Shown: positions 24,787 through 40,960 of the stretch, one piece after another
How positions within the stretch are numbered: position 1 is the first letter of the stretch
Layout: each line of letters opens with the position of its first letter
NCBI GenBank assembly: GCA_963702025.1
Contig: OY969699.1
Coordinates: forward strand, 768,001 to 832,000
Reading direction: 5' to 3'
Source: an uncultured bacterium
GTDB taxonomy: Bacteria; Babelota; Babeliae; Babelales; Vermiphilaceae
DNA: 64,000 nt
Position numbers and translations under genes: made by a program
The notes under the pieces: model-generated
Told to the model about the DNA's origin: nothing
What the model saw: the letters and a program-made list of their open reading frames with translations, nothing else
Database searches by the model: none

Positions 24787-26697
24787 TTATGAGAGATATT
24801 GATTGAATGACGTTAATAAAGCACTGCAGGCCATACCGGCATTAAATTCGCCCAGTGCCGTCACGCATCGTGCTTGCTGCGGCGTATATGAAAAATTAAA
24901 GGTATCGCACGGACCGGAATTAATGCATGCCTCACTATCAAAATCTTTTAGAATCGAATAGAGCGCAGCATATGCCGGATCATTTTTGTATACTTCCAAT
25001 AAGGCATGATCAACGATTATCGGCACATAAATTACCGTCGGCACTTGTGGATCATCGTCACTAAAAACACTCACCGCATGTTTATCAATATCGGTATAAT
25101 CAATTACGGGGAACGGTAAATTGTTTGCACGAGCATAATTTTCAACATTGCGTAATTCAGCACCAATAGTGCCGGCAGAGGCATCAATAAAAATAATAAT
25201 ATCGGCGTGCCGATCCGGCCGCTGCCCGCTAATAGGTGGGTACGGCAAATTAAAATCGGTACCCGCATCAACAAGCCGCAACACCGGCAATGCGTCACGA
25301 GGAATGCCGGCCATTTGATAAATGCAATTTAAATATTCAGCGGTGACCAGACGATCATTACCATACTTTTGTAGAATCCTGGCAAGAATCGTATGCACTA
25401 ATGCTGATTGCGTGGCATTCATAAGATTTTCATCTTGGAATATCTGCTTAATGGTAGCACCAATTGCCAATCCAAAGGTTCCCAAGAATGTGCCCATAGA
25501 TTGTTCTGGCGCATTGCTAACCGAAAGCCCATTTTTAAATTTTCTACCAAAGGCCCACGTTGGCACATAGGCAGCAAAACGTGAGGCGCCAATTTCATAC
25601 GGCGTAAATTCATACCAAATAGTTTCGGTTTGATTTTCTTCACCGCTCACCGCGGTATAAATAGGCAACGGCAATGAGCCATCGCCAATAGCCGCAACCT
25701 GTTCAGAAAGATGCACACTATTTTTGTTCTTTGCAAAAAGACCAAACAGATTATTAGCAATACAGGCCCCATATAAATCAACAAAGCCAACCGGCTGCCC
25801 CGAACAATATTTGGTTAGTACCACCTCTTCTATGAGTGCAGCATCATCAACAGAAAGACCATCCATGTGAGAATAGATATGGTTAATGAGCCAGTCATGA
25901 AAAAGATCAATAGACATGCCGCTCGATATCCATGATGCGATTGCCCACGTTGACCCTGATAGCCCAACTAAATACGAAACAAGATCAAATGTTCCGTGTT
26001 TAATGAACGCTTTTAAAGCGCCGGTGGTATAGAGCATTGCCCTGTATCCGCCACCACTACAGGCAATAGCAACGCGTGGAATTTTTTGTGATGAAGTATT
26101 AAATCCGTATTTTGTTAATGCCTGGCAAATGTAGGCAAGACGCCGCGTACTCTGATCATATTCGGTCGGCACTAAGCCATTACCGGTGCGCACAAAGGCA
26201 AAAGAATCTTTATACGGATTATTTTTGATTGCCGGCAACCTATCAAAAAGCAGCTCTTCAGCCTTCTGTAGAGGCCCTTGATTGGTGTCCCATTCGGATG
26301 CGGTATAACCATAAACATCATCATCTTCCACCGCAATATAAAAGAGCGCACCTTGATTATTATCAACGGCCAGCCCATGATAGGCATCAACCATTGCCTT
26401 AGACACAGTTTGCGCAAGAAGTGATACATCTTCAACAAACAACAATATCAGTGAATGCCCCCACCATATTTGTGGCCGTTCAATCTCTAATTCTTGATGT
26501 GATTCGATAGAATAAATCGCCGTTACACGATTTGCTGATTGATCAATAAAGGGGATCCACATCCGCTGATCATAAAGCGCAACATGCAAATCGCGCGGCG
26601 TTTGATTATACACACTGATAGTGTCAGAATAAATTCGGATAAATAAGACGAAACTTACGAGTAACAGAAAGTTCGTTCTCTTCATTTTTTTATTCAT
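24787..26697 (-). CDS. cPLA2/phospholipase B-type lipase, paralog 2
   Basis: SGGGYRAM, GLSGSTW nucleophile elbow, PLPIYTAV, WYEFTPYE, LVDAG catalytic Asp; signal peptide. Confidence 0.88.
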   Translation of the reverse strand: MNKKMKRTNFLLLVSFVLFIRIYSDTISVYNQTPRDLHVALYDQRMWIPFIDQSANRVTAIYSIESHQELEIERPQIWWGHSLILLFVEDVSLLAQTVSKAMVDAYHGLAVDNNQGALFYIAVEDDDVYGYTASEWDTNQGPLQKAEELLFDRLPAIKNNPYKDSFAFVRTGNGLVPTEYDQSTRRLAYICQALTKYGFNTSSQKIPRVAIACSGGGYRAMLYTTGALKAFIKHGTFDLVSYLVGLSGSTWAIASWISSGMSIDLFHDWLINHIYSHMDGLSVDDAALIEEVVLTKYCSGQPVGFVDLYGACIANNLFGLFAKNKNSVHLSEQVAAIGDGSLPLPIYTAVSGEENQTETIWYEFTPYEIGASRFAAYVPTWAFGRKFKNGLSVSNAPEQSMGTFLGTFGLAIGATIKQIFQDENLMNATQSALVHTILARILQKYGNDRLVTAEYLNCIYQMAGIPRDALPVLRLVDAGTDFNLPYPPISGQRPDRHADIIIFIDASAGTIGAELRNVENYARANNLPFPVIDYTDIDKHAVSVFSDDDPQVPTVIYVPIIVDHALLEVYKNDPAYAALYSILKDFDSEACINSGPCDTFNFSYTPQQARCVTALGEFNAGMACSALLTSFNQYLS

Positions 26698-28724
26698 CCT
26701 TTTGGTATGGAGTTATCCTTTCTTTGGCCAACCCATTTTATATTTTCAATAATCGTATCGATCGCACTGTAACTATTAAGCTCGCCCATGAGCATAACAT
26801 TTTTGGCTTGATCCGATGGGTAGGTAAAGTTTTCACTGGCACACACACCTAGTCTAAAGCAGACATCTATATCAAAACTGGCAAATTGTTGTATTTTAGA
26901 TTTTAAATCAGCGCGTTTCATTTCTAGTTCTTTGAGTGCCTTTTGATCAGCAATTCGCGGCATATAAATAACCACCGGTGCCTTTACATTTTTTGCATCT
27001 TTAAAAATACTCACCGCTTTTTTCATTACCTGATCATAGGTAATTTTAGGAAATGGTAATTTATGGGAACGTGCATAATCTTCAATAATTTTAAGGCTCG
27101 AAACACGCAGACTTTTTGGATTGGTTGGATCAATGCTTAATAAATTATCTGACGCATCAACGCAAATGAGTATGTCCATATCTCTGCCCGGCCGCTGGCC
27201 ACTCACCGGCTGGTAGGGTAAATTAGAGAATGAAACACCCGCATCGGTTAAACTTAAAAATGGCGCATCTTTAACCGGACTATTTGGCATGTCACGGCTG
27301 AAATTAAGCACCTTTGCTTCAAAGGGGCGATAGGCGCCAATTTGCTCATCAATTTCCATTACAATGTTTTTTGCAAATTGGAGTGGCATTTTTTTCTCAA
27401 GATCTATTTCTTGGAGCATACGCGTAATGCTGGCTCCTAGGGCAAAACCCCAGATTCCCATTAAGTTCCCAAGACTTAATTCCGGCGTGTCGGTACGCAC
27501 CAAATTACCATTGCGGAATTTAGCGCCAAATGCGCGTGCCGGCACATACATGCCAAGCCATGAACCACCCACTTCATACGGCGTAAATTCATACCACATA
27601 TTTTCAACCGCAAGACTTTCAGCTCTCACCGCTGTATAAATTGGCATCGGCAAATGTCCGCTTTCTATAATTCTTGCTTGCTCAGAGAGATGCTGGCGCT
27701 GCTTCATTGCGCCCTGTTTGCCAAAAAAAGTGTTGGCGAGTAATGCGCCATAGAGATCCACCGGGCCAAGGGGTTGCTCAAAAAGGTATTTGGTGATGAG
27801 CATTTGTCCTATCAATGCCGCATCATCAGAAGACACATTTTTTACCCCGTTGGATAATTTGTCTACTATCCAATCACAAAACACCGGCAATGGCACTCCT
27901 GATGAGTACCAAGAGCCTATTCCCCAGGTTGAACCCGAAAGTGTTGCTACATAAATTATGGCATTTAAAACACCCGATTGTTCAAGCGCACGCAAAACGC
28001 CGAGCGTATAAAGCATTGCACGAGTGCCACCGCCGCTCATTACAAGTGCAATTTTTACCGGTTGAGTCAATGAGGTGCCGATCAATTTTTCTTGCGCTTG
28101 TTTAACGCGCGGTAATCGCCGTGCCACATAGGTTTTTTCAGCTTCGGGCAAATCATTGCCCACTCTCACCTGCGCCGGCTGGCCTCTATATGGGTTTTCA
28201 TTAATTGCCGGCAATTGCTTAAACACCAGTTCTTGGGCTTTATCAAGAAGCGCTTTATTAACGTTCCACTCAACCGTGGTATACCCCAGCAGTATTCCTT
28301 CTTTTTCACCAATATAAAAAACATCACCTTGCAGATCGCCCACATTTTTAGAATTAAATTTTTCTTTTACGTCAAAATAGGGCAATTCCGGTTTAAAAAG
28401 ATTTTTGTCTTCCAGAAACACAAGTTCGCGATCATACCCCACTTTGCGTGCCGGACGTTGTACAATGCCCGATGCTTGGCTTTCCACAAATTGTACCGGT
28501 GAGGCAAGCTTTGCCGTTTGATACTCGTTCTCCCACGGCAACTTCATGCGAAGGTAATAGATGCCAACATACAAATCACGCGGCGTTTGGTTATGAACGG
28601 TGATGCGATCGCCGACTTCCGGCGCCATTTTTTGCACCGCCGGTTCTTCTTTGAGCGTAACCGGTGCATACAAGTTCGCAAAATTTAAGAGCGCGAGCGA
28701 GAGTACTATTTTTTTTGCATCCAT
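26694..28724 (-). CDS. cPLA2/phospholipase B-type lipase, paralog 1
   Basis: SGGGTRAM, TLSGSTW, PMPIYTAV, WYEFTPYE, LTDAG; signal peptide. Confidence 0.88.
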   Translation of the reverse strand: MDAKKIVLSLALLNFANLYAPVTLKEEPAVQKMAPEVGDRITVHNQTPRDLYVGIYYLRMKLPWENEYQTAKLASPVQFVESQASGIVQRPARKVGYDRELVFLEDKNLFKPELPYFDVKEKFNSKNVGDLQGDVFYIGEKEGILLGYTTVEWNVNKALLDKAQELVFKQLPAINENPYRGQPAQVRVGNDLPEAEKTYVARRLPRVKQAQEKLIGTSLTQPVKIALVMSGGGTRAMLYTLGVLRALEQSGVLNAIIYVATLSGSTWGIGSWYSSGVPLPVFCDWIVDKLSNGVKNVSSDDAALIGQMLITKYLFEQPLGPVDLYGALLANTFFGKQGAMKQRQHLSEQARIIESGHLPMPIYTAVRAESLAVENMWYEFTPYEVGGSWLGMYVPARAFGAKFRNGNLVRTDTPELSLGNLMGIWGFALGASITRMLQEIDLEKKMPLQFAKNIVMEIDEQIGAYRPFEAKVLNFSRDMPNSPVKDAPFLSLTDAGVSFSNLPYQPVSGQRPGRDMDILICVDASDNLLSIDPTNPKSLRVSSLKIIEDYARSHKLPFPKITYDQVMKKAVSIFKDAKNVKAPVVIYMPRIADQKALKELEMKRADLKSKIQQFASFDIDVCFRLGVCASENFTYPSDQAKNVMLMGELNSYSAIDTIIENIKWVGQRKDNSIPKG

Positions 28725-28852
28725 GACCCTTTTCCTTTCTACAAAAATTTTGCTTCAAATCATACAGTAAAAAACGGGATGGGATAAAGTCAAGCTCCTT
28801 GAATTGAGAGCGAAGAGACTTTGCTTTGGCGATGATTGGAAGTGCCTTCACG

Positions 28853-28897
28853 TCCGTTCGTGGTGAGTGTTTCGCGTAGCGAAATGTATCGAACCAT
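28853..28897 (+). repeat. Type A palindromic repeat
   Basis: TCCGTTCGTGGTGAGTGTTTCGCGTAGCGAAATGTATCGAACCAT. Confidence 0.85.
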
Positions 28898-28944
28898 TTT
28901 TCGAAGCACGTCTCGAGAATTTTTATCTACTTTACTCAAGAAGA

Positions 28945-29067
28945 GAATTATCATTACAATCTGTTGCAAAGCAGATACAAGAAAAGAAGATGACTCTTGA
29001 ACAGGCTAAAAAAATCTTACCTAATGATCTGCACCAAGAACTGGAAAAGGTGTTAAAAACTCCGTAA
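28945..29067 (+). pseudogene. Orphan C-terminal gene fragment
   Basis: Coding-like LSLQSVAKQIQEKKMTLEQAKKILPNDL..KTP-stop; the only upstream start lies inside the repeat. Confidence 0.4.
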
Positions 29068-29250
29068 GCAACAAACTACCTTTTTCAGGTTAAAATGTTT
29101 GAAAATCCACCCATCTTTAAGCAAATTTTGCTTGAAAATCCAGGCAATTCAAATATCATGTTTGCTTTTTGACCAAAATGTTGTAATTTTATATCTGATT
29201 ATTGACCAAATCTTAATAAATATTGCTTGATTTTTGACCAAAAGGTTCTT

Positions 29251-30603
29251 ATGAAGCGAACTATAGGCTATTATCTTAACCAATGGAAACTTGATAAGTA
29301 TAGAAAACCGCTCTTGCTTCGCGGCGCTCGCCAAGTCGGCAAGACCCATGTGGTTCGAGAATTGGGAAAATCGTATCCCGATTTTGTTGAAATCAATTTA
29401 GAAAAAATACCAAATGCTGAACTTATTTTTGAAAAAGATCTCGAGCCTGAAAGAATTCTGTTTGATATATCTTTAATAGTCGACAAAAAAATTACACCGG
29501 GTGTCACCCTACTGTTTATTGATGAGATCCAAACAGTACCCCGCGCAATCATTGCGCTACGCTATTTTTATGAGATAATGCCAAATCTTCATGTGATAGC
29601 CGCAGGCTCACTGCTTGATTTTGCAATTGAGAAAGTCGGTATTCCCGTTGGCCGAGTTGAATCATTATATATGTATCCAATGTCATTCATAGAATTTTTA
29701 GCGGCCTCTCAAGGAGAATTACTGGTAGAAGAAACAGTTTCTCACGTACTTGAAAAAGAGATGAGTGTCATTATCCATAAAAAATTGCTTGGGCTCTTGG
29801 GAGAATATATTGCCATCGGCGGCATGCCCCAGGCCGTTCAGGTATGGCAAGAAACAAAAGATCCTCGTCAATGCTCAAGAATTCACCATGCAATACTTGA
29901 TACATATCGCCAAGATTTTGGTAAATATGCAAAAAAACTGCAAATTAAATATGTTGAATTACTTTTTGAGCAGATCCCGCTTCAACTGGGAAAAAAATTC
30001 AAATACAGTCTGATTGAAGGTGAATATCGCAAACGTGAACTTGCGCCGGCTCTGGATCTTCTTGTTACCGCCGGCATTGCACATAAAGTTTTTCATTCAG
30101 CGGGCCAAGGCATACCCATTGGTGCCCAAATGGATCTACAAGATTATAAAATTGTATTTCTTGATGTTGCATTGAGCCAAGCAGCACTCGGGCTAGATCT
30201 GGCCGGCTGGTTTTTAAATCCTTTGACTGAATTTAGCAATAAAGGTTCGCTCCTTGAATCATTGGTGGGACAAGAATTACTTGCCTGTGGCGACCCGTTT
30301 AAACAAGATCATCTCTATTACTGGCACCGCGAAGCGCGTACAAGCCAAGCAGAAGTTGATTATCTTATACAAGAAGGTGAGCTAATCATACCAATAGAAG
30401 TAAAAGCTGGCTCAGGAAAAACGCTTAAAAGTCTCCATATGTTTCTTGAAACTCACGCCAAATCGCCCTTTGGCATCAGATTCTCAACACAAAACTATTC
30501 ACTGTATGAAAACATCCGTTCATATCCGCTCTATGCTATTGCACATGCGATAGGAGGTCCGGAAATCAGGCGGGCGGTTAATTCTTTTTTTCACTCATCA
30601 TAA
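29251..30603 (+). CDS. AAA+ ATPase, AAA_14/DUF4143 family
   Basis: GARQVGKT, FIDEIQ, AGSLL, GGMP, C-terminal EVDY..PIEVKAG nuclease-like motif. Confidence 0.9.
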   Translation: MKRTIGYYLNQWKLDKYRKPLLLRGARQVGKTHVVRELGKSYPDFVEINLEKIPNAELIFEKDLEPERILFDISLIVDKKITPGVTLLFIDEIQTVPRAIIALRYFYEIMPNLHVIAAGSLLDFAIEKVGIPVGRVESLYMYPMSFIEFLAASQGELLVEETVSHVLEKEMSVIIHKKLLGLLGEYIAIGGMPQAVQVWQETKDPRQCSRIHHAILDTYRQDFGKYAKKLQIKYVELLFEQIPLQLGKKFKYSLIEGEYRKRELAPALDLLVTAGIAHKVFHSAGQGIPIGAQMDLQDYKIVFLDVALSQAALGLDLAGWFLNPLTEFSNKGSLLESLVGQELLACGDPFKQDHLYYWHREARTSQAEVDYLIQEGELIIPIEVKAGSGKTLKSLHMFLETHAKSPFGIRFSTQNYSLYENIRSYPLYAIAHAIGGPEIRRAVNSFFHSS

Positions 30604-30609
30604 AAAGAA

Positions 30610-32880
30610 TTATTCTCGTTTTTTCAACGTCGGAAATAGAATGACATCTTTAATCGAAGTAGTATTGGTCAACAGCATCGCAAGCCGATCAATACCAACC
30701 CCGACGCCCACCGTTGGCGGCAATCCATATTCAAGCGCATGAACATATTCAGCATCATAATGATGCGCTTCCGCATCACCGCCCGCCCGAGCATCAACTT
30801 GCTGCTTAAACCGTGAGGCTTGATCAAAGGGATCATTAAGCTCATTAAAGCCATTGGCAATTTCCATGCCTGCAATAAACATTTCAAACCGCGCGGCAAA
30901 ACGTGGATCTTTTGCATCCCGTTTTGCAAGTGGTGAAACTTCAATAGGAAATTCAGTAACAAATGTTGGTTGTATCAACCGATGCTCAACAATTTTTTCA
31001 AATAACGCATAGATTTTTTCACCCCATGAAGCATTTTTATTTGCCATGGTGATGTTATTTTCTTTTAAGCGTATATCAATAACTGCGGGTGCCACATCGG
31101 CATCAGCGTAATGGCCGTATTCCAATACCGCATCTTTGATAGTGGTACGTTTAAACGGTTTTTCAAAATCGATGGTAAAATCACCAAAGGGAACTTGTAA
31201 AGTGCCACATACTTTTGTGGCAACAGCGCGGAACATATCTTCCACAAATCCCATGATAAAGTGATATTCATGATATGCCATATACATTTCAAGCATAGTA
31301 AATTCTGGATTATGGCGCGTTGAAATTCCCTCATTTCTAAAATTACGGTTTATCTCATACACGCGCTCAAAGCCGCCCACAACCAATCGTTTTAAATAGA
31401 GTTCGGGTGCGATCCGCAAATAAAAATCACTACCCAAGGCATTATGGTGTGTTATAAATGGACGCGCCGCGGCACCACCGGGAATGGGATGCAGCATTGG
31501 CGTTTCCACTTCCATAAACTGATGGCCATCAAGATAACCTCGCACTAAACGAATCAGTTGCGAGCGCTTGATAAACCGTTGTCGACTTTGCGCATTCGTA
31601 ATCAAATCCAGATATCGCTGCCGATAAATAGTTTCTATATCCTGCAAACCATGAAATTTTTCAGGCAATGGGAAAAGACATTTGCTCAGTAATTGAAATT
31701 CAGTAACTTTAAGACTAATTTCACCGGTCTTTGTTTTGAATGAACTGCCTTTTGCCCAAACAATATCACCAACATCGATAAACTTTTTAAATTGTTCGTA
31801 TACAACGCCCAGCTCATCCTCTCTGAGATACAGTTGAAGTTGGCTTGTTGCATCTTGAATCACCACAAATGATGCTTTGCCAAAATGGCGAATCACCCGA
31901 ATGCGACCGGCAACCGTATATTCTTTTGACTGGGTATCCGAGAATTCAGCATGAACCTGTTGGGCGGTCCCATCCACCTCTTTTGTGGGTGGCCATGGGC
32001 TGATGCCTGCAGCTTCCATTGCTTTAAGTTTTTCTAACCGAACATGGTGCTCAGGGCTATCATCACTTTGCGTGACTTCAGGTATGGCTTCCACTTTAGC
32101 AGTTGTAATTTTATAAGGAGACTCAGCCAATTCAATTTTTTTAAAGGGATTTTGTTCTACAAAATGGTTATCTTTTTTAAGAGTAATAGTTGGATTTTGC
32201 TCATCAAGAAATGCAACGGTGACCGTGCCGCCACAATACTTTTGAATAAGTGATGCTAGCTCATTGGTGGCAGCTTCTAAAAATTTTTGATCAACGGGTG
32301 GTAATATTTCTAATACAAGAAAAGCATTACGGGTTTGTGGAGTAATTTTTGTGCGATCAGCTTCTTTCCAATTCCATCGGCGGCAAATGGCGCCATTCTC
32401 ATCTTTATAAAAGACTTCGCCCTCGTTGGGAGTTTTAGCCTCTTTTTCACCCAATAAAATCGTAGGATTTTCATTTTTGCCAGCAAAAGTAAGTTCGATA
32501 TCACCTTTTATGGTATCCAGGTCTTCGCCACCTGCAGGCAACATATATTTAAGTGAAATAATATTATAAATATCAACCAGGGAATTTATTGATCTAAACG
32601 GCGCTCTTTTAATAACCCTACTAAGGAGATTTTCAATAGAAGATAAATGTTCTTTTGGCTTGGCCCCAAATTTTTTATATGCTTCGCGCCATGTTGTGAT
32701 AGAGGGATGTTGGTTTAAGGTATCATGAGTTAAGTTGGTAACAACTTTTTGTTGCTGTTGCTGTAGTAAATCAACGATTTCTCTGGTTTCCTTAGTATTA
32801 TTAGTATCTTTTGCAATAACAATACCAATACGAGCACCAGGGTATTCCTTAAAAATTCGTGGATTTATTTTAAACTGCAT
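30610..32880 (-). CDS. lysS: Class II lysyl-tRNA synthetase with N-terminal B3/4-type domain
   Basis: LysRS motifs RQRYLDL, GGAAARPF, LRIAPEL, FRNEG, ELNDP, GIDRL. First ~230 aa contain WREAY, SSIENL, INSLVDIYN, GGEDLD, CRRWNWKE. Confidence 0.95.
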   Translation of the reverse strand: MQFKINPRIFKEYPGARIGIVIAKDTNNTKETREIVDLLQQQQQKVVTNLTHDTLNQHPSITTWREAYKKFGAKPKEHLSSIENLLSRVIKRAPFRSINSLVDIYNIISLKYMLPAGGEDLDTIKGDIELTFAGKNENPTILLGEKEAKTPNEGEVFYKDENGAICRRWNWKEADRTKITPQTRNAFLVLEILPPVDQKFLEAATNELASLIQKYCGGTVTVAFLDEQNPTITLKKDNHFVEQNPFKKIELAESPYKITTAKVEAIPEVTQSDDSPEHHVRLEKLKAMEAAGISPWPPTKEVDGTAQQVHAEFSDTQSKEYTVAGRIRVIRHFGKASFVVIQDATSQLQLYLREDELGVVYEQFKKFIDVGDIVWAKGSSFKTKTGEISLKVTEFQLLSKCLFPLPEKFHGLQDIETIYRQRYLDLITNAQSRQRFIKRSQLIRLVRGYLDGHQFMEVETPMLHPIPGGAAARPFITHHNALGSDFYLRIAPELYLKRLVVGGFERVYEINRNFRNEGISTRHNPEFTMLEMYMAYHEYHFIMGFVEDMFRAVATKVCGTLQVPFGDFTIDFEKPFKRTTIKDAVLEYGHYADADVAPAVIDIRLKENNITMANKNASWGEKIYALFEKIVEHRLIQPTFVTEFPIEVSPLAKRDAKDPRFAARFEMFIAGMEIANGFNELNDPFDQASRFKQQVDARAGGDAEAHHYDAEYVHALEYGLPPTVGVGVGIDRLAMLLTNTTSIKDVILFPTLKKRE

Positions 32881-32980
32881 AGCAAGTCCTTAAATCAGAT
32901 ATAGTGTCTCAACAATTTCTTAGTATAGAGATTTTACCCTTTTTTTCTATTGGTAGGTCTACGCTCCCGGCTATGCCTAC

Positions 32981-33008
32981 TTGACAAAAGCAATCAGCCA
33001 TCTATACT
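32981..33008 (+). promoter_or_regulatory. Sigma70 promoter
   Basis: TTGACA-N16-TATACT upstream of 33049. Confidence 0.75.
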
Positions 33009-33048
33009 AATAATTGCTATATGAAATTATTAAATATGGAGTGTTATT

Positions 33049-33897
33049 ATGTTTAGATATTTTATCTTATCAACTTTTCTATTTGTAACTTTAAACCTGC
33101 AAAGCATGGAGCATAAAGCAGGAAATCAGGAAGAAGATCTTATTGAAGAGGTTCAGGAAGAAGCTGACACCGTGGAATTAGTTCCTATGGAATCTCCTGC
33201 TGAAACGAATGCTCCTCTTGCGCCAAATGCTCCCAAAAAACGCCAATTTTTTGTTCATGTAATTTCTCCTAAAAAGTCAAAAACTGTTGCATTTGCTCCC
33301 GTGACTGAACCTCCATCGCTTAAGACCATATGTGCTCAGACGATTAATAACTTACTGCGCACCAGTAAATTGACCCTGTCAAACTGGGTAAAATATATAT
33401 CTTCAAAACCTGATGAGCTGCAACATATACTTTTTTCTGATCTTATCATTCGAAGCCAAGTGGAAAACCCTAACCTTGATAAAATTCATCGTTTAGAACT
33501 ATTAGAATTATGCGAAAAAATTTGTTCTGAGCTAAAAAAAATAAAACAAGATAATTGTTATGCCTCTTTTCTAGATGCTATGCTTGAAAACCTAACCCAA
33601 ATGAGCACCCGCTCCTTTCGCCTTCAGTGCATTGCACAGATACTTCAAGAAAACACATCTTTAGGTGAGCGAGTTCTCAAACGTCTTACTGACAAAAATG
33701 GCTATCATTTGTACCCTTATAAAATAGATGAAGCAAGATACTATCTCATAGCACATGAGCAGATAAAAGACTTTACCTATGAAAAAGTTGGAATGACCCA
33801 AGTTGTTAATGACAAAATTAGTGTCACCAGTAGCGCCATTACCCAACAACTCAATGCTAAGATTAAATCCGCTAAAAAAAATATTGAATTTGAGTAG
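33049..33897 (+). CDS. Hypothetical exported protein with SOCS/BC-box-like motif
   Basis: GGAG RBS, signal LQS|MEH, internal PPSLKTICAQTI. Confidence 0.7.
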   Translation: MFRYFILSTFLFVTLNLQSMEHKAGNQEEDLIEEVQEEADTVELVPMESPAETNAPLAPNAPKKRQFFVHVISPKKSKTVAFAPVTEPPSLKTICAQTINNLLRTSKLTLSNWVKYISSKPDELQHILFSDLIIRSQVENPNLDKIHRLELLELCEKICSELKKIKQDNCYASFLDAMLENLTQMSTRSFRLQCIAQILQENTSLGERVLKRLTDKNGYHLYPYKIDEARYYLIAHEQIKDFTYEKVGMTQVVNDKISVTSSAITQQLNAKIKSAKKNIEFE

Positions 33898-34509
33898 TTA
33901 TTTTAGTGGATTTAAATAATTCTGTTCCGCCTGATCCCAGTTAACCACATGCCACCAGGCAGTAATATAATCGGGCCGTTTATTTTGGTATTTTAAATAA
34001 TAAGCATGTTCCCAAACATCAAGACCAAGCACCGGCTTATATCCTTGTAGCATAACCGGATCTTGATTTGGTGTAGAAATTACACATAACTGACCATTTT
34101 TGTCCAGCACCAACCAGGCCCAACCGCTGCCAAACACTTTCTTTGCAGCAGCATTAAACTCTTCTTGGAATTTTTCAAATGAGCCAAATTTTTTATCGAT
34201 AGCTTTGGCAAGCTCCCCCTTGGGACTGCCACCACCATTTTTTTTCATGAGCGGCCAAAAGAATGAATGATTAAAATCCCCGCCCGCATTATTTTTTACC
34301 GTCGTTTGTATTTCTTTAGGGAGTTTATCTATTGATTGGATAATTTCCAGCAAAGACTTTTTTTGCCATTCAGGCAAATCTTTTAATGCCGCATTTAGAT
34401 TATCAATGTAGGCTTGGTGGTGCTTGGTGTAATGAATTTCCATGGTACGCGCATCGATGTATGGTTCAAGCGCATCATAGGCGTAGGGTAATGGTGGTAA
34501 AACAAACAT
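33898..34509 (-). CDS. sodA: Fe/Mn superoxide dismutase, Mn-type signature
   Basis: LPYAYDALEP, HHQAY, NH, FGSGWAW, NQD, DVWEHAYY; AGGAG RBS before ATG 34509. Confidence 0.93.
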   Translation of the reverse strand: MFVLPPLPYAYDALEPYIDARTMEIHYTKHHQAYIDNLNAALKDLPEWQKKSLLEIIQSIDKLPKEIQTTVKNNAGGDFNHSFFWPLMKKNGGGSPKGELAKAIDKKFGSFEKFQEEFNAAAKKVFGSGWAWLVLDKNGQLCVISTPNQDPVMLQGYKPVLGLDVWEHAYYLKYQNKRPDYITAWWHVVNWDQAEQNYLNPLK

Positions 34510-34525
34510 AAGAATCTCCTCAAAT

Positions 34526-34650
34526 ATGGTTCGATACGATTGCTCCGCAATCACTCACCACGAACGGATTTTTCCGCTCATCCTGCCGTGCCCGCCGAAG
34601 CTTTATGCGAAGGCTGGGAGTAGAAACCGAAGGTTTTCATATCGAAGGAT
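34526..34650. repeat. Back-to-back type A repeats, the second with a nested type B insert
   Basis: ATGGTTCGATAC..ACTCACCACGAACGGA, then TCCGCTCATCCTG[..CCGCCGAAGCTTTATGCGAAGGCTGGG]AGTAG..ATCGAAGGAT. Confidence 0.85.
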
Positions 34651-34928
34651 TAAACTAAATAAATTTCTTCATCAGCGCGGGCCATCTGCAATTGTTCCCG
34701 CGCAATTTTTTCTTTAAAAAAGGGATGACTCTTTTGTAATGCAATATGCGAACGCAATCGGTCAACCTCGCCGGTGAGAAGCACAACTTCTTTTTCAAGA
34801 GCAGTAATATCACTTTTCATGTGCAGCATGTCCATGATACCATTGGTGCCAAAAAAATAAAAACCCAGAAAAAGAATCAATTCTCCGGCAAAAAGAATGC
34901 GCACAACATACCGTTTATGAAATACCAT
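34650..34928 (-). CDS. Septum formation initiator FtsB/DivIC family
   Basis: One TM, coiled coil, EKIAREQLQM..DE.IY motif. Confidence 0.8.
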   Translation of the reverse strand: MVFHKRYVVRILFAGELILFLGFYFFGTNGIMDMLHMKSDITALEKEVVLLTGEVDRLRSHIALQKSHPFFKEKIAREQLQMARADEEIYLV

Positions 34929-35031
34929 TTTTCTATCCTCATTTCTATCTACAGATAGTTTTCTACAAAATCATAGAAAAAATCAAACAAAAAAGTTTAG
35001 TGTTGTAGAAATTAAGATACAAGGAGAGATA

Positions 35032-36738
35032 ATGGTCATTTTGCTTATATTTGCATTTTTATCAGGAATCATCACCGTTCTTTCGCCTTGCATCTTGCCC
35101 GTACTGCCTATTTTGCTTGCCGTGAGTATTGGTGAAGGAAGATATCGGCCATTGGGGATTATTTGTGGGTTAATAATCAGTTTCACTTTCTTTACTTTAT
35201 CACTCACTGCACTAGTTCACGCGACCGGTATTTCAGCAAATGCATTACGCTATTGCGCCATTGGGCTATTAATACTCTTTGGGCTCACTTTGATATTTCC
35301 GCGCTTGGAACTTTTCTTTTCTCAACTAACCGGCGGCATTGCCAACCTTGGCACACAAATAGAATCACAATCGGCACGGTTGGGCGGTGGATTTTGGAGT
35401 GGCTTTATGGTCGGCAGTGCACTTGGTTTGATTTGGGCACCATGCGCCGGACCAATTTTGGCTACGATTGTTACGTTAGTGGCAACCAGCTCCATAACGT
35501 TGGGCACCGTGCTCATCACGCTTGCCTATAGCGCGGGCACTGCCTTACCAATGTTTTTAATAATGTATGGCAGCAATAAAATTATCAGCTCAACTATGAG
35601 TCTGGGTGCTTACACTCCACTCATTAGAACTCTTTTTGGTATCATAATGATTGCCGGCGCATTGGCAATCTTATTTCATGCCGATGTTGCGTTGCAGCAA
35701 TTTACGCTCAACTATTTCCCTTCGCTTTCTATTGAAAATAATCCAACAATACGCAACGAAATTGAAAAATTTAAACAACAAGCAACCGGGATTCCTTTGT
35801 TATCCGCCGCACCGCGTCTGGGTGGCGCTGCCCCCGATTTTGTTGGCATACAAGAGTGGGTCAATTCACCACCGCTTTCACCTGCCACATTGCGCGGTAC
35901 GGCATTTTTAGTAGATTTTTGGACCTATAGCTGCATCAATTGTGTGCGCACTCTTCCTTATTTAAAAAAATGGTATGCCGATTATCATGATAAAGGTTTT
36001 ACTATCATCGGTGTTCACACGCCAGAATTCGAATTTGAAAAAGATCGGGCAAATGTTATAGCCGCAGTGAAACGCTTTGGTATCGAGTATCCCGTTGCAT
36101 TAGATAATGAATATAAAACATGGCAGAATTATCACAATAGCTATTGGCCCGCCCATTATCTTGTTGATCAAAACGGCATAGTCAAAGAGATACACTTTGG
36201 TGAAGGCAACTATACCGAAACTGAAAACGAGATACGAAAACTCTTAGGATTAGAGCCGGTTGCACAGATAAAAGAAGAAGTGGTCCGTGCACGCCAAACG
36301 CCTGAAACCTATTTAGGAGCATCACGCGGACGCAGTTATATTAATAGCCTAAAACCCAACCAAATTAGCGATTATTCTTACAGCAGCGCCCTCATGCATG
36401 ATCAAGTTGGTCTGACCGGCCAATGGTACGTGGCACCTGAATTTATACAATCAAACAGTGATTCGGCAACATTGAGTATTAATTTCACGGCAAATCGTGT
36501 TTATCTGGTTATGGCATCGCCAGAGAGCAAATCAATTATTCTCTTTTTGGATGGCAATCCATTACCCGCAGAATTTTCCGGCAAAGATGTAACAAACACC
36601 AATACACTGACAGTTAAAGAATCACGCATGTATGATCTGATTGATCTTAAAAAAAATAACGGCAACCATCTACTCACCCTTCAAGTGCCAAAAGATGTGC
36701 AATTGTTTGCATTTACCTTCGGTAGTGGTGTGCAGTAA
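35032..36738 (+). CDS. dipZ: DipZ-like CcdA-thioredoxin fusion
   Basis: SPCILP and WAPCAGP TM cysteines, FWTYSCINC thioredoxin, TPETYLG C-terminal domain. Confidence 0.88.
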   Translation: MVILLIFAFLSGIITVLSPCILPVLPILLAVSIGEGRYRPLGIICGLIISFTFFTLSLTALVHATGISANALRYCAIGLLILFGLTLIFPRLELFFSQLTGGIANLGTQIESQSARLGGGFWSGFMVGSALGLIWAPCAGPILATIVTLVATSSITLGTVLITLAYSAGTALPMFLIMYGSNKIISSTMSLGAYTPLIRTLFGIIMIAGALAILFHADVALQQFTLNYFPSLSIENNPTIRNEIEKFKQQATGIPLLSAAPRLGGAAPDFVGIQEWVNSPPLSPATLRGTAFLVDFWTYSCINCVRTLPYLKKWYADYHDKGFTIIGVHTPEFEFEKDRANVIAAVKRFGIEYPVALDNEYKTWQNYHNSYWPAHYLVDQNGIVKEIHFGEGNYTETENEIRKLLGLEPVAQIKEEVVRARQTPETYLGASRGRSYINSLKPNQISDYSYSSALMHDQVGLTGQWYVAPEFIQSNSDSATLSINFTANRVYLVMASPESKSIILFLDGNPLPAEFSGKDVTNTNTLTVKESRMYDLIDLKKNNGNHLLTLQVPKDVQLFAFTFGSGVQ

Positions 36739-38303: not shown

Positions 38304-38380
38304 TGCCAATTGCTCTTTTTGCAATAAACATTATCCTTTAACAAAAATGAAATTGAAAATATTTTTGTAAAGGAATGGTT

Positions 38381-39673
38381 ATGAATCGTTTTCTTGCCCT
38401 TTTTTGTCTCACACTTGGATTTGCTACCCATTTCTACGCCGATGAACCGTCAAAAGTAAAAACATTATTCGGAAATAACATTGAAATGAAACATAACCCC
38501 GAATGGATAGAACAACTTAATAAAGCAATCGCGCAAGAAGATCCGGCACTGAAAAAGAAACTTGAAGATAATTGCGCAGCACTGCCACTTGCCAAGCAAT
38601 TTCCGGCACTCAGAATTCCTCATATTTCATTGTGCAAGCTGCCAACACCGGTACAAAAACTAGAAAATCTCAGCAAAGAATTGGGCACCACTATTTTTAT
38701 TAAAAGAGATGATATGACCGGGGGCCAATTATATGGCGGCAACAAGCCCCGCAAATTAGAATTTGAACTTGCCCGTGCATTAAGCCATCAAGCAAAAAGT
38801 ATCGTAACATTTGGCTGCGCAGGATCCAACCATGCAGTTGCAACCAGCGAACATGCGCGCAATTTAGGCTTAAAGCCAGTCTGCATGTTGAAACCGCAAG
38901 CAAATTCTCAGGTTGTGCGAAAAAACTTACTCCTTCATCTTGCCAATGGCACCGAACTTCACTATGCCCCTAATAATGATGTGAGAAAAGTGTCTGCCAT
39001 TAGCACGTGGCTTGATCTGGTAAATAGAAAATTGCAACCGTATTATATCCCAACCGGCGGATCAACACCATTAGGCGCGGTAGGCTTTGTGAACGCTGCG
39101 TGCGAACTCAAAGAGCAAATTGATGCCGGCTTGATACCAATGCCTGATTATGTTTATGTTCCCTGCGGCAGTTGTGCAACCACCGTTGGCTTAACATTAG
39201 GATTTAAAACTCTCAATTTACCAATAAAAGTTATGGCAATTGCCGTTGAACCGGAAGAAGAGCCGCAAGAATTTAAAACTACTATCACCAAACTCTTTAA
39301 GGCAACCAATGAATTACTCAATAAAGTTACCAATGGCACATTCCCAATCCTTGAACTGAAACCGGAAGACATCGAAATAAACCTTAATTTCACCGGACCA
39401 GAATACGCTGTCTTTACCCAAGAAGGAATTGCAGCTCGTGAGCTTTTAAAGAAAACTGAAGCAATAACGATTGATGGCACGTATACCTGCAAAGCTTTCG
39501 CAGCGCTCTTGGCAGATATTAGATCAAAGAAAAGTGAAAATAAAACAGTTCTCTTCTGGAACACCTACTGCGGCGCTGAATTTCAAAATCGTGTAGCTTC
39601 GGTCAATTATAAGGATCTACCAGCATGCTTTCATGCTTATTTTGAAGAAGATGTGCAAGAATTGGATAAATAA
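38381..39673 (+). CDS. PLP enzyme of the D-cysteine desulfhydrase/ACC deaminase family with signal peptide
   Basis: PTP, IKRDD, GGNKPRKLEF, SNHA, PTGGS..GAVG, D.TYT.KA motifs. Confidence 0.85.
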   Translation: MNRFLALFCLTLGFATHFYADEPSKVKTLFGNNIEMKHNPEWIEQLNKAIAQEDPALKKKLEDNCAALPLAKQFPALRIPHISLCKLPTPVQKLENLSKELGTTIFIKRDDMTGGQLYGGNKPRKLEFELARALSHQAKSIVTFGCAGSNHAVATSEHARNLGLKPVCMLKPQANSQVVRKNLLLHLANGTELHYAPNNDVRKVSAISTWLDLVNRKLQPYYIPTGGSTPLGAVGFVNAACELKEQIDAGLIPMPDYVYVPCGSCATTVGLTLGFKTLNLPIKVMAIAVEPEEEPQEFKTTITKLFKATNELLNKVTNGTFPILELKPEDIEINLNFTGPEYAVFTQEGIAARELLKKTEAITIDGTYTCKAFAALLADIRSKKSENKTVLFWNTYCGAEFQNRVASVNYKDLPACFHAYFEEDVQELDK

Positions 39674-40960
39674 TTATGTGTCTTGAAACTCAAACGGCAA
39701 CATTCTTTTTGCAAGCTCAAATTTTTCAATAATTTCTTGTCGGTCACGGCCACCGATATTCATGAGGCCATACCGATAACTCTTGCCATCTTGCAACTGA
39801 TCGGAAAGTAGTTCACCTTCGCTGGTATATACGTATATTCGAATATCAGGTATCGCTTCTTTTACTTTTTCTATATCAGCTGAGCTGGGCACTTTTACTA
39901 CTTTTTTATTTTCAAAAAGACGCAAAACACAGCTTGCCGCCATCGCATAGTTACCCTTTGCCCGCGGCAGCACGGGTTGTTTTCCTGTTGCAACGTCGAG
40001 TGCAACACGGTAAGCGTTAAAGCCTTCAACTTTTTCATAAAGATCGGCAAATTGTGAAGAAAATCGCGGGTTAACTTCTATAATATGAATCTCATCGGTT
40101 ACCGGATTATACATCATTTCTATATTAAACAATGAATTATTAAAATTGATGCCCGTTAAAAAACGCGCAGCAATATCTGCCATTCTTTGCTGCACATTTT
40201 CAGGCAATACGGATGGATATTCAAAGCGAGAAAAGCTTATGGTTCCGGGGAACATAATTGAATCAGTAATACCAATAGTATGGCACACATTATCTTGCAC
40301 AAACCCTTCAACGTTCACTTGCTGGCCGTGCAAGAATCCCTCGGCAATAAAATAGTCCCCGCTCATATCTATGGAAGAATAATGCTGAAGAAACCAATTA
40401 AACTGATATAAAAACCGATCAGACATACTGCCCGTTTTTGTTACAAAATTCGTAAGCTCCGGTAAAGATTCAATCTTATTGGCTAAAAAAGAAAAATATG
40501 CTTTTACTGGTTTTACAAAAACAGGAAATTGCAAAGAAAATGTTTTTGGATCAAATGAATTGGGATTAATAAGTTCAAATCCGGGTGTAGCTTCAGGAAC
40601 CAATTGGGCCTGTAAACAGCGTGCATAATATTTATGCTGGCATTCTAATATTGGAGCAGATGAAGGTGCAATGAACTTTTTATTGTAGGCAATAATACTG
40701 GCATAAATGCTTCCGGGGTAATCGTCGGAAGAAAGAACACCCGTTATTGCATGCGTATCACAAAATTCTAATAATTCGTTAATAATAAGTGCGGGATTAC
40801 TTTTTTCAAATTGTCCATCATAGTTTCTGGCGAGAATGCGCTCAAATGATGTTTCATCATAATCATGAAATTCTACTACTACATCACCAATTATATGTGG
40901 TGATGATAATTCACACCTATCTCTCTTGGTAGGACAAATTACTAAAATTTTTTGCTTCAT
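39674..40960 (-). CDS. ATP-grasp domain protein
   Basis: HKYYAR, FPVFVKP, AEGFLHG, FNIE, IIEVNPR motifs. Confidence 0.85.
   Translation of the reverse strand: MKQKILVICPTKRDRCELSSPHIIGDVVVEFHDYDETSFERILARNYDGQFEKSNPALIINELLEFCDTHAITGVLSSDDYPGSIYASIIAYNKKFIAPSSAPILECQHKYYARCLQAQLVPEATPGFELINPNSFDPKTFSLQFPVFVKPVKAYFSFLANKIESLPELTNFVTKTGSMSDRFLYQFNWFLQHYSSIDMSGDYFIAEGFLHGQQVNVEGFVQDNVCHTIGITDSIMFPGTISFSRFEYPSVLPENVQQRMADIAARFLTGINFNNSLFNIEMMYNPVTDEIHIIEVNPRFSSQFADLYEKVEGFNAYRVALDVATGKQPVLPRAKGNYAMAASCVLRLFENKKVVKVPSSADIEKVKEAIPDIRIYVYTSEGELLSDQLQDGKSYRYGLMNIGGRDRQEIIEKFELAKRMLPFEFQDT

Follow-up and report, generated by a model that had tools for sequence, protein, structure and literature searches.

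A lysyl-tRNA synthetase (LysRS) gene, lysS, whose product carries an added N-terminal domain was analysed in a 64,000-nucleotide window from the genome of an uncultured bacterium (Babelota; Babeliae; Babelales; Vermiphilaceae; GenBank assembly GCA_963702025.1, contig OY969699.1, positions 768,001 to 832,000 of the forward strand). The gene joins a predicted deacylase domain of the CtdA-1 type to a complete class II LysRS (Table 1). From sequence comparisons we propose, at about an even chance, that the tethered domain is a deacylase that frees tRNA-Lys of arginine, of an analogue resembling arginine or of a similar non-cognate basic residue.

The fusion architecture of lysS is confirmed. The gene is a single open reading frame (ORF) with an ATG start and no internal stops, and Pfam assigns residues 64-217 to B3_4, with 101.7 bits where the cut-off is 29.3, ahead of the OB and tRNA-synt_2 domains listed in Table 1. 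The NCBIfam model lysS_bact (TIGR00499) matched residues 277-754 with 622 bits (cut-off 427.6). An earlier note, made from the letters of the window alone, had described an uninterrupted 756-aa frame made up of a B3/4-like domain of ∼230 aa, a linker of ∼45 aa and a class II LysRS, and had proposed checking the domain architecture; all of these elements were found, the linker being 45 aa long and the N-terminal domain specifically CtdA-1-like. Among 64 aligned fusions the linker ranges from 32 to 56 aa (median 41); mean pairwise identity is 20% in the linker, 52% in the domain and 62% in the LysRS core. The full-length AlphaFold model is confident into the linker to about residue 250 and of low confidence at residues 259-274; because confident parts are separated by this stretch and the predicted template modelling score (pTM) is 0.46, the model fits a tethered module lacking fixed docking.

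Table 1. Coordinates of the lysS fusion gene, its domains and its pocket motifs in the window.
Feature	Position	Strand	Description and basis
lysS fusion gene	30610..32880	-	756 aa; class II LysRS preceded by a CtdA-type B3/4 domain and a linker
N-terminal CtdA-1-type domain, predicted deacylase	32191..32880	-	residues 1-230; Pfam B3_4, PDB sequence matches, AlphaFold, Foldseek
Linker	32056..32190	-	residues 231-275; AlphaFold confidence, length and identity, dN/dS
OB-fold anticodon-binding domain of LysRS	31687..31920	-	residues 321-398; Pfam
Class II catalytic domain (tRNA-synt_2)	30625..31638	-	residues 415-752; Pfam
Y105-N106 (CtdA Y104/N105)	32563..32568	-	alignment; catalytically required per published mutagenesis
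G117-G118-E119 (CtdA G116/G117/E118)	32524..32532	-	alignment; E118 is one of two acidic pocket-floor residues
C166-RRWNWK-E173 (CtdA C166 specificity residue; Q173)	32362..32385	-	alignment
V189-L-E191 (CtdA I189/E191)	32308..32316	-	alignment; E191 is the second acidic pocket residue

The kinship with CtdA that the earlier note had suggested for the N-terminal domain was evident in sequence, predicted fold and pocket residues. Against PDB sequences, residues 1-230 matched the CtdA entries 9MKL (Salmonella enterica; E = 1.4e-29) and 9F7E (P. canavaninivorans; E = 9.4e-28), and PheRS-beta with E = 0.0097. The AlphaFold model of the domain alone had a predicted local distance difference test score (pLDDT) of 90.9 and a pTM of 0.89, and a Foldseek search with this model, the source of all fold similarities given for the domain, ranked CtdA first to third (TM 0.85–0.86, root mean square deviation 2.8–3.1 Å, 27–30% identity); TM to PheRS-beta, which belongs to the same fold family (PF03483), reached at most 0.63. 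The CtdA-specific helical insert, defined as residues 28-92 (PMC12449066), has its counterpart in predicted helices at residues 33-49, 52-56, 59-69 and 81-90.

Published mutagenesis of CtdA points to Y104, N105, E118 and E191 (PMC12268091) and to N105, G116, C166, Q173 and I189 (PMC12449066) as residues that matter. By alignment these correspond to Y105, N106, G117, E119, C166, E173, V189 (a conservative change) and E191, with S108 and G117 of CtdA also kept and its W158 and W187 replaced by Y and F. Glutamate at position 173 also occurs in the active CtdA of C. perfringens (PMC12449066). Y105, N106, G117, C166, E173 and E191 are nearly invariant in the 64-row fusion alignment. The presence of C166 separates the domain from CtdA-2, in which this residue is absent or replaced (PMC12449066), and G117 and E173 occupy positions at which PheRS-beta has H265/G318. 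Sequence and model together thus point specifically to a CtdA-1-like domain with an intact pocket, and not to a PheRS-beta editing domain. CtdA itself stands alone and acts on canavanyl-tRNA(Arg) (PMC10018355, PMC12268091, PMC12449066), whereas the present domain is joined covalently to LysRS; we therefore class it as a CtdA-type domain and not as CtdA.

The synthetase half is an ordinary class II LysRS by the presence of OB and class IIb catalytic domains, both above the family cut-off. Structural matching by Foldseek placed LysS and LysU at the top, with 52% identity to the E. coli enzymes; these share the OB and catalytic core, to which the fusion adds a 275-aa N-terminal module. Residues E493, E531, Y533, N676, F678 and E680, which we take to form the lysine pocket by their roles in E. 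coli LysU, match those of unfused relatives, and the residues of motifs 2 and 3 are conserved as well. Mycobacterial LysX (MprF-LysRS) is likewise a class II LysRS extended at its N-terminus by a further domain; its model PRK02983 matched the LysRS half only (510, below the cut-off of 742), and the added domain here is B3/4, not MprF. The genome is a single contig of 1.6 Mb, 95% complete, with two tRNA-Lys genes. The lysS fusion is the only LysRS found in it: tblastn gave one LysRS-II match, and a search for class I LysRS (PF01921) gave just three partial matches of 60–70 positions and no class I enzyme.

The same domain order was found in 66 of 99 matches to residues 1-300, each a protein cluster other than this one. 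In the phylum, single-sequence and profile searches agreed in finding the domain in 28 of 261 genomes, where it is fused to LysRS in 22 (this one included), stand-alone in four, broken in one and, in one, probably part of a fusion split between contigs. The last case (L189) was first counted as unfused and was excluded from the table of pocket positions; its core matches P0062 and the domain L023, on another contig of the same genome (G219), matches that protein as well. An assembly artefact, which the earlier note had named as grounds for rejecting the fusion, is excluded because the architecture recurs in these independent assemblies. As to reads, none of the contig pieces listed from four runs spans the linker. 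One fused lysS (L031:5667-5713, G185:C2) is frameshifted within the part for the catalytic core; as the gene is essential, this is probably a fault of the assembly.

The domain is under purifying selection. In four pairs, the ratio of nonsynonymous to synonymous substitution rates (dN/dS) was 0.09–0.13 for the domain and 0.05–0.13 for the LysRS core; linker values were 0.29–0.59 in three pairs and not computable in the fourth. At the same time the domain is a dispensable accessory that most relatives have lost or never had, and in the tree of LysRS cores, those with and those without the domain are intermixed throughout. For 64 fusions, 13 of the 17 domain splits with support ≥0.95 were shared with the core tree and one was in conflict. 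A Mantel test between domain and core gave a weak correlation (rho 0.15, 32 of 999 permutations as high), so it is the shared splits that argue for vertical co-inheritance. An old fusion with repeated loss fits best, although recombination may have restored the domain. The interleaved cores, the shared splits and the loss of pocket residues in some copies could also be the trace of a decaying passenger of that fusion, shed lineage by lineage. We consider this very improbable, as dN/dS in this genus and in a second pair is ∼0.1, equal to that of the core, and no stop or frameshift falls within any of the 22 fused domain matches. Stand-alone CtdA-like proteins of the phylum (L024-L029) form a clade of their own in which Gly takes the place of E118; L026, which belongs to this clade, is joined to LysRS and apparently represents a second, separate fusion in the phylum.

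Partner enzymes were surveyed across microbes with a profile (A1) limited to proteins of 642–2000 aa, which gave 157 matches. Among the 120 listed, every one was fused to LysRS-II (60 N-terminal, 17 C-terminal), LysRS-I (11 N-terminal, 17 C-terminal) or ArgRS (15), a count biased toward Lys/Arg partners by the size range and by the content of the profile, whose rows include the window domain itself, two domains taken from fusions (ArgRS/LysRS-I type) and part of a third such domain. Source names of the listed fusions include Gracilibacteria, Patescibacteria, Diapherotrites and Micrarchaeota. LysRS-I and LysRS-II are non-homologous, and several fusion events are therefore needed. In a 99-row domain tree, with hand-picked rows and poorly supported deep clade order, three clades (Shimodaira-Hasegawa-like approximate likelihood ratio test values of 97, 99 and 98) each contain both LysRS-I and LysRS-II fusions, indicating that the module has moved between unrelated enzymes sharing only the amino acid and the tRNA. 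A larger tree was built from 183 of 406 domains, after removal of duplicates, of fragments shorter than 150 aa and of randomly chosen free-standing and N-fused rows. Partner choice appears to track the amino acid and not the synthetase fold, and this is the main functional evidence. The earlier note had the B3/4 domain on LysRS right; it missed the LysRS-I and ArgRS fusions and the absence of the domain from most relatives.

A less biased sample came from 401 genomes in the phylum of a Daviesbacteria record, where 24 domain matches in 22 genomes comprised six ArgRS, four LysRS-II and four LysRS-I fusions, one fusion each to TyrRS, to ProRS, to MetRS and to a TrpRS-like protein that also has a YbaK-type domain, and six short or cut frames. 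In the phylum to which a Micrarchaeota record belongs (251 genomes), the domain was matched 17 times, 16 times as a stand-alone protein and once on MetRS. None of the five fusions with non-Lys/Arg synthetases has a full CtdA pocket. These divergent B3/4 domains with non-CtdA pockets lie on TrpRS-like, TyrRS, ProRS and MetRS frames (L141:406-2664(-), L129:1435-3441(+), L139:1468-3606(+), L144:1498-3594(-) and L155:994-3516(-)); the TrpRS-like protein carries its YbaK-type domain at the front, and in L155 the B3/4 domain sits between the anticodon domain and the tRNA-binding OB domain of MetRS. Genomes G310 and G609 each encode a pair of distinct B3/4 domains on different synthetases, TyrRS and LysRS-II in the former and ArgRS and MetRS in the latter. 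An origin of the fusion from operon neighbours is not supported, as neither lysS nor argS was found within up to 4 kb at any of 73 free-standing loci (L037-L110, with L042, a fusion, left out). Long frames at four of these loci (L047, L098, L107 and L108) had no second Pfam domain and were treated as stand-alone. One free-standing copy from the candidate phyla radiation (CPR), L126, adjoins argS.

Some pocket variants differ in frequency between partners. The combination D118 and Y189 was found in 20 of 130 LysRS fusions, in none of 26 ArgRS fusions and in none of 224 free-standing domains, and R168D with Q173D in eight LysRS fusions of both classes and one match cut at a contig end; the rows are kin and represent a few events, not 28. 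Both combinations are essentially confined to LysRS. A CPR subfamily (L130-L136, L138 and L143) common to class I and class II LysRS C-terminal fusions has E118 changed to F or Y together with R168D and Q173D, and is the best candidate for a lysine-adapted editor. On the ArgRS side (fusions such as P0083-P0093, P0227 and L123-L125), 14 of 26 fusions have Tyr for W171, a change seen in 10 of 148 LysRS rows, and four of 26 have Val for C166. In CtdA, the C166A mutant lost hydrolysis of Arg-tRNA and kept its canavanyl-tRNA activity (PMC12449066).

Pocket change could also mean that the domain is a non-catalytic module binding the tRNA acceptor end, raising tRNA affinity or protecting Lys-tRNA-Lys much as OB and N-terminal extensions do elsewhere. 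In keeping with this, at least four other synthetases bear B3/4-type domains whose pockets are remodelled, and of the fused Babeliales-type domains 52 of 76 have a complete pocket, the deviating share being put at about a quarter. A different piece of PheRS-beta, the B2 domain with an OB fold, is moreover reported on CPR TyrRS and LysRS (PMC5370408). We regard such a module as quite unlikely here, since catalytic and pocket residues, needless for RNA binding, are all kept in this protein and its genus and are nearly invariant in the 64 rows.

We propose instead that the domain would act as a post-transfer editor: on tRNA-Lys leaving the synthetase, it would remove wrongly attached arginine or an analogue similar to arginine that was taken up from the host. 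In E. coli, attachment of arginine to tRNA-Lys by LysRS is a documented error, and the enzyme does not deacylate Arg-tRNA-Lys (PMC5370406); the editing described for LysRS is pre-transfer, at the synthetic site (PMC5370406; PMC7373986). CtdA hydrolyses Arg-tRNA-Arg at >1 µM enzyme, ArgRS and EF-Tu protect Arg-tRNA-Arg, and docking indicated that CtdA binds arginine and canavanine alike (PMC12449066). A flexible tether would raise the local concentration before EF-Tu binds, so that this weak Arg-tRNA activity could become useful editing, and the deep two-glutamate pocket would spare the shorter lysine side chain. By analogy with CtdA, Arg-tRNA-Lys would fit an Arg/canavanine-type pocket better than ornithine does. 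The earlier note had offered either proofreading against a lysine analogue or a tethered trans-editing factor, and both alternatives stand; its first test substrate, ornithine, is a weaker candidate, being edited by E. coli LysRS before transfer and, according to one review, not mischarged onto tRNA-Lys (PMC5370406), though LysRS2 can form Orn-tRNA-Lys at mM ornithine (PMC8001834). That methylated lysine or arginine, derived from protein scavenged in the host, might be the edited residue is speculation.

No dihydrodipicolinate synthase, argininosuccinate synthase or decarboxylase of ornithine, diaminopimelate or arginine was found in the 95%-complete genome, and lysine and arginine are therefore likely to be imported by this bacterium. 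A cultured member of the Dependentiae imports amino acids as well as peptides from the protist that hosts it (PMC6561590). Given both points, analogues would arrive with the food supply of this bacterium, a likely parasite of protists. Two other roles were considered and set aside. A degenerate LysRS pocket in need of editing was not seen in the comparison of 77 fused with 25 unfused rows; the core columns that best separate the two groups (418, 581 and 370, uncorrected for kinship) lie outside the positions checked. A stand-in for a lost PheRS editing domain is ruled out, as the second B3/4 match in the genome, in a 779-aa frame, is of the PheT type and CtdA fails to rescue PheRS editing (PMC12449066).

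Several observations weigh against an editor of tRNA-Lys. Only 22 of the 261 phylum genomes have the fusion, and within the genus lysS is unfused in four of eight genomes, with a core 73–82% identical to this one; three of these four show it at the same site, next to sod (upstream) and/or an AAA or phospholipase gene (downstream). At its active-site positions, LysRS is the same in 77 fused and 25 unfused rows, giving no sign of a sloppier synthetase. At the tabulated positions the pocket equals that of free-standing relatives and of canavanyl-tRNA-Arg deacylases, with no lysine-specific change. A full pocket was present in 43 of 57 fused domains 50–60% identical to this one, the other 14 having lost a pocket residue, compared with 120 of 120 free-standing domains, although the latter were top-scoring matches, a selection that favours conservation. 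No domain-positive genome (n = 28) has both a fused and a free copy. The bias of the profile search noted above counts here too, as do the distant B3/4 domains fused to TyrRS, ProRS, MetRS (twice) and the TrpRS-like protein with its YbaK-type domain, and the three LysRS-I fusions that also bear an AlaX-like part; from their sequences, small-genome lineages appear to append editors rather freely to synthetases. These three (P0234, P0235 and P0245) are class I LysRS of archaeal type in which the CtdA-type domain is accompanied by an AlaX-like part (PF01411 end, PF07973), N-terminal in one and C-terminal in two, i.e. a synthetase bearing two appended editors.

Much of this would also suit an ordinary CtdA acting in trans, removing canavanine or another arginine analogue from tRNA-Arg and sitting on lysS only because translation-quality genes tend to be attached to synthetases in small genomes. 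The pocket is that of CtdA-1, including the equivalents of E118, C166 and E191; the nearest relatives of the domain outside the phylum are free-standing proteins at 50–58% identity; fused and free copies behave in the 28 genomes as if interchangeable; unrelated synthetases have AlaX-like and YbaK-type editors added to them as well; and the full-length model has no fixed docking. This reading leaves unexplained the repeated fusion of the CtdA-pocket type to both LysRS classes and otherwise to ArgRS, as well as the LysRS-restricted pocket variants. Nor does the setting resemble that of CtdA: no Rfam match at E ≤ 1, guanidine riboswitches included, was found at 28000-36000, and the lysS neighbours, by Pfam, do not form a canavanine operon. 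We consider this trans reading, the main rival, somewhat unlikely. More tentatively than our proposal for this protein, CtdA-type domains in general may be true post-transfer LysRS editors, recruited many times on both LysRS classes and on ArgRS in host-dependent, amino-acid-importing bacteria and archaea, clearing arginine or modified basic residues of host origin from tRNA-Lys, with D118/Y189 and R168D/Q173D as lysine-adapted specificities; we give this less than an even chance.

Both flanks of lysS differ among close relatives. In the window, an AAA_14/DUF4143 gene (29227-30603, +) converges on the lysS stop with a gap of 6 bp, and a 282-aa ORF without a Pfam match (33049-33897, +) lies upstream. 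Further downstream, tandem genes of 636 and 676 aa (24787-28724, -) have lysophospholipase/PLA2_B domains (PF01735), and PLA2_B-gene homologues lie downstream of lysS in several relatives. Elsewhere, a pyridoxal phosphate-dependent PALP-family gene (38375-39673, +) abuts a convergent 428-aa ORF (39674-40960, -) that is ATP-grasp-like by eye.

The fusion is a real, conserved architecture made from two known families and is apparently unpublished. No published description was found, in a search in which "B3/4" was not searchable as a term and subscription journals were mostly uncovered, nor in passages of PMC7373986, PMC11580382, PMC9437257, PMC5370408 and PMC11415595. The words "fused", "fusion" and "LysRS" are absent from the main text of PMC10018355, PMC12268091 and PMC12449066. 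The 2025 Nucleic Acids Research phylogeny of CtdA (PMC12449066) kept only sequences of 180–260 aa and would drop fusions; in its supplementary table a single sequence, from Alteribacillus persepolensis (length not seen), is labelled "Lysyl-tRNA synthetase, class 2", but it need not be a fusion, as this automatic name is also given to a stand-alone protein of 234 aa. Public databases label the fusion proteins simply as lysine--tRNA ligase.

In the reviews consulted, LysRS is said to edit only before transfer and CtdA to be only a stand-alone editor of tRNA-Arg, and the repeated pairing of the two points to an unrecognised error in the charging of tRNA-Lys. The fusion also bears on a question left by the authors of the CtdA studies, namely the role of CtdA in organisms that perhaps never meet canavanine. 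The Babeliales set is a clean natural experiment, with near-identical LysRS cores with and without the domain at the same locus in one genus, and the fusion protein is open to published CtdA assay methods. For this bacterium, as predicted from sequence and fold, the module likely adds a proofreading step for the lysine tRNA.

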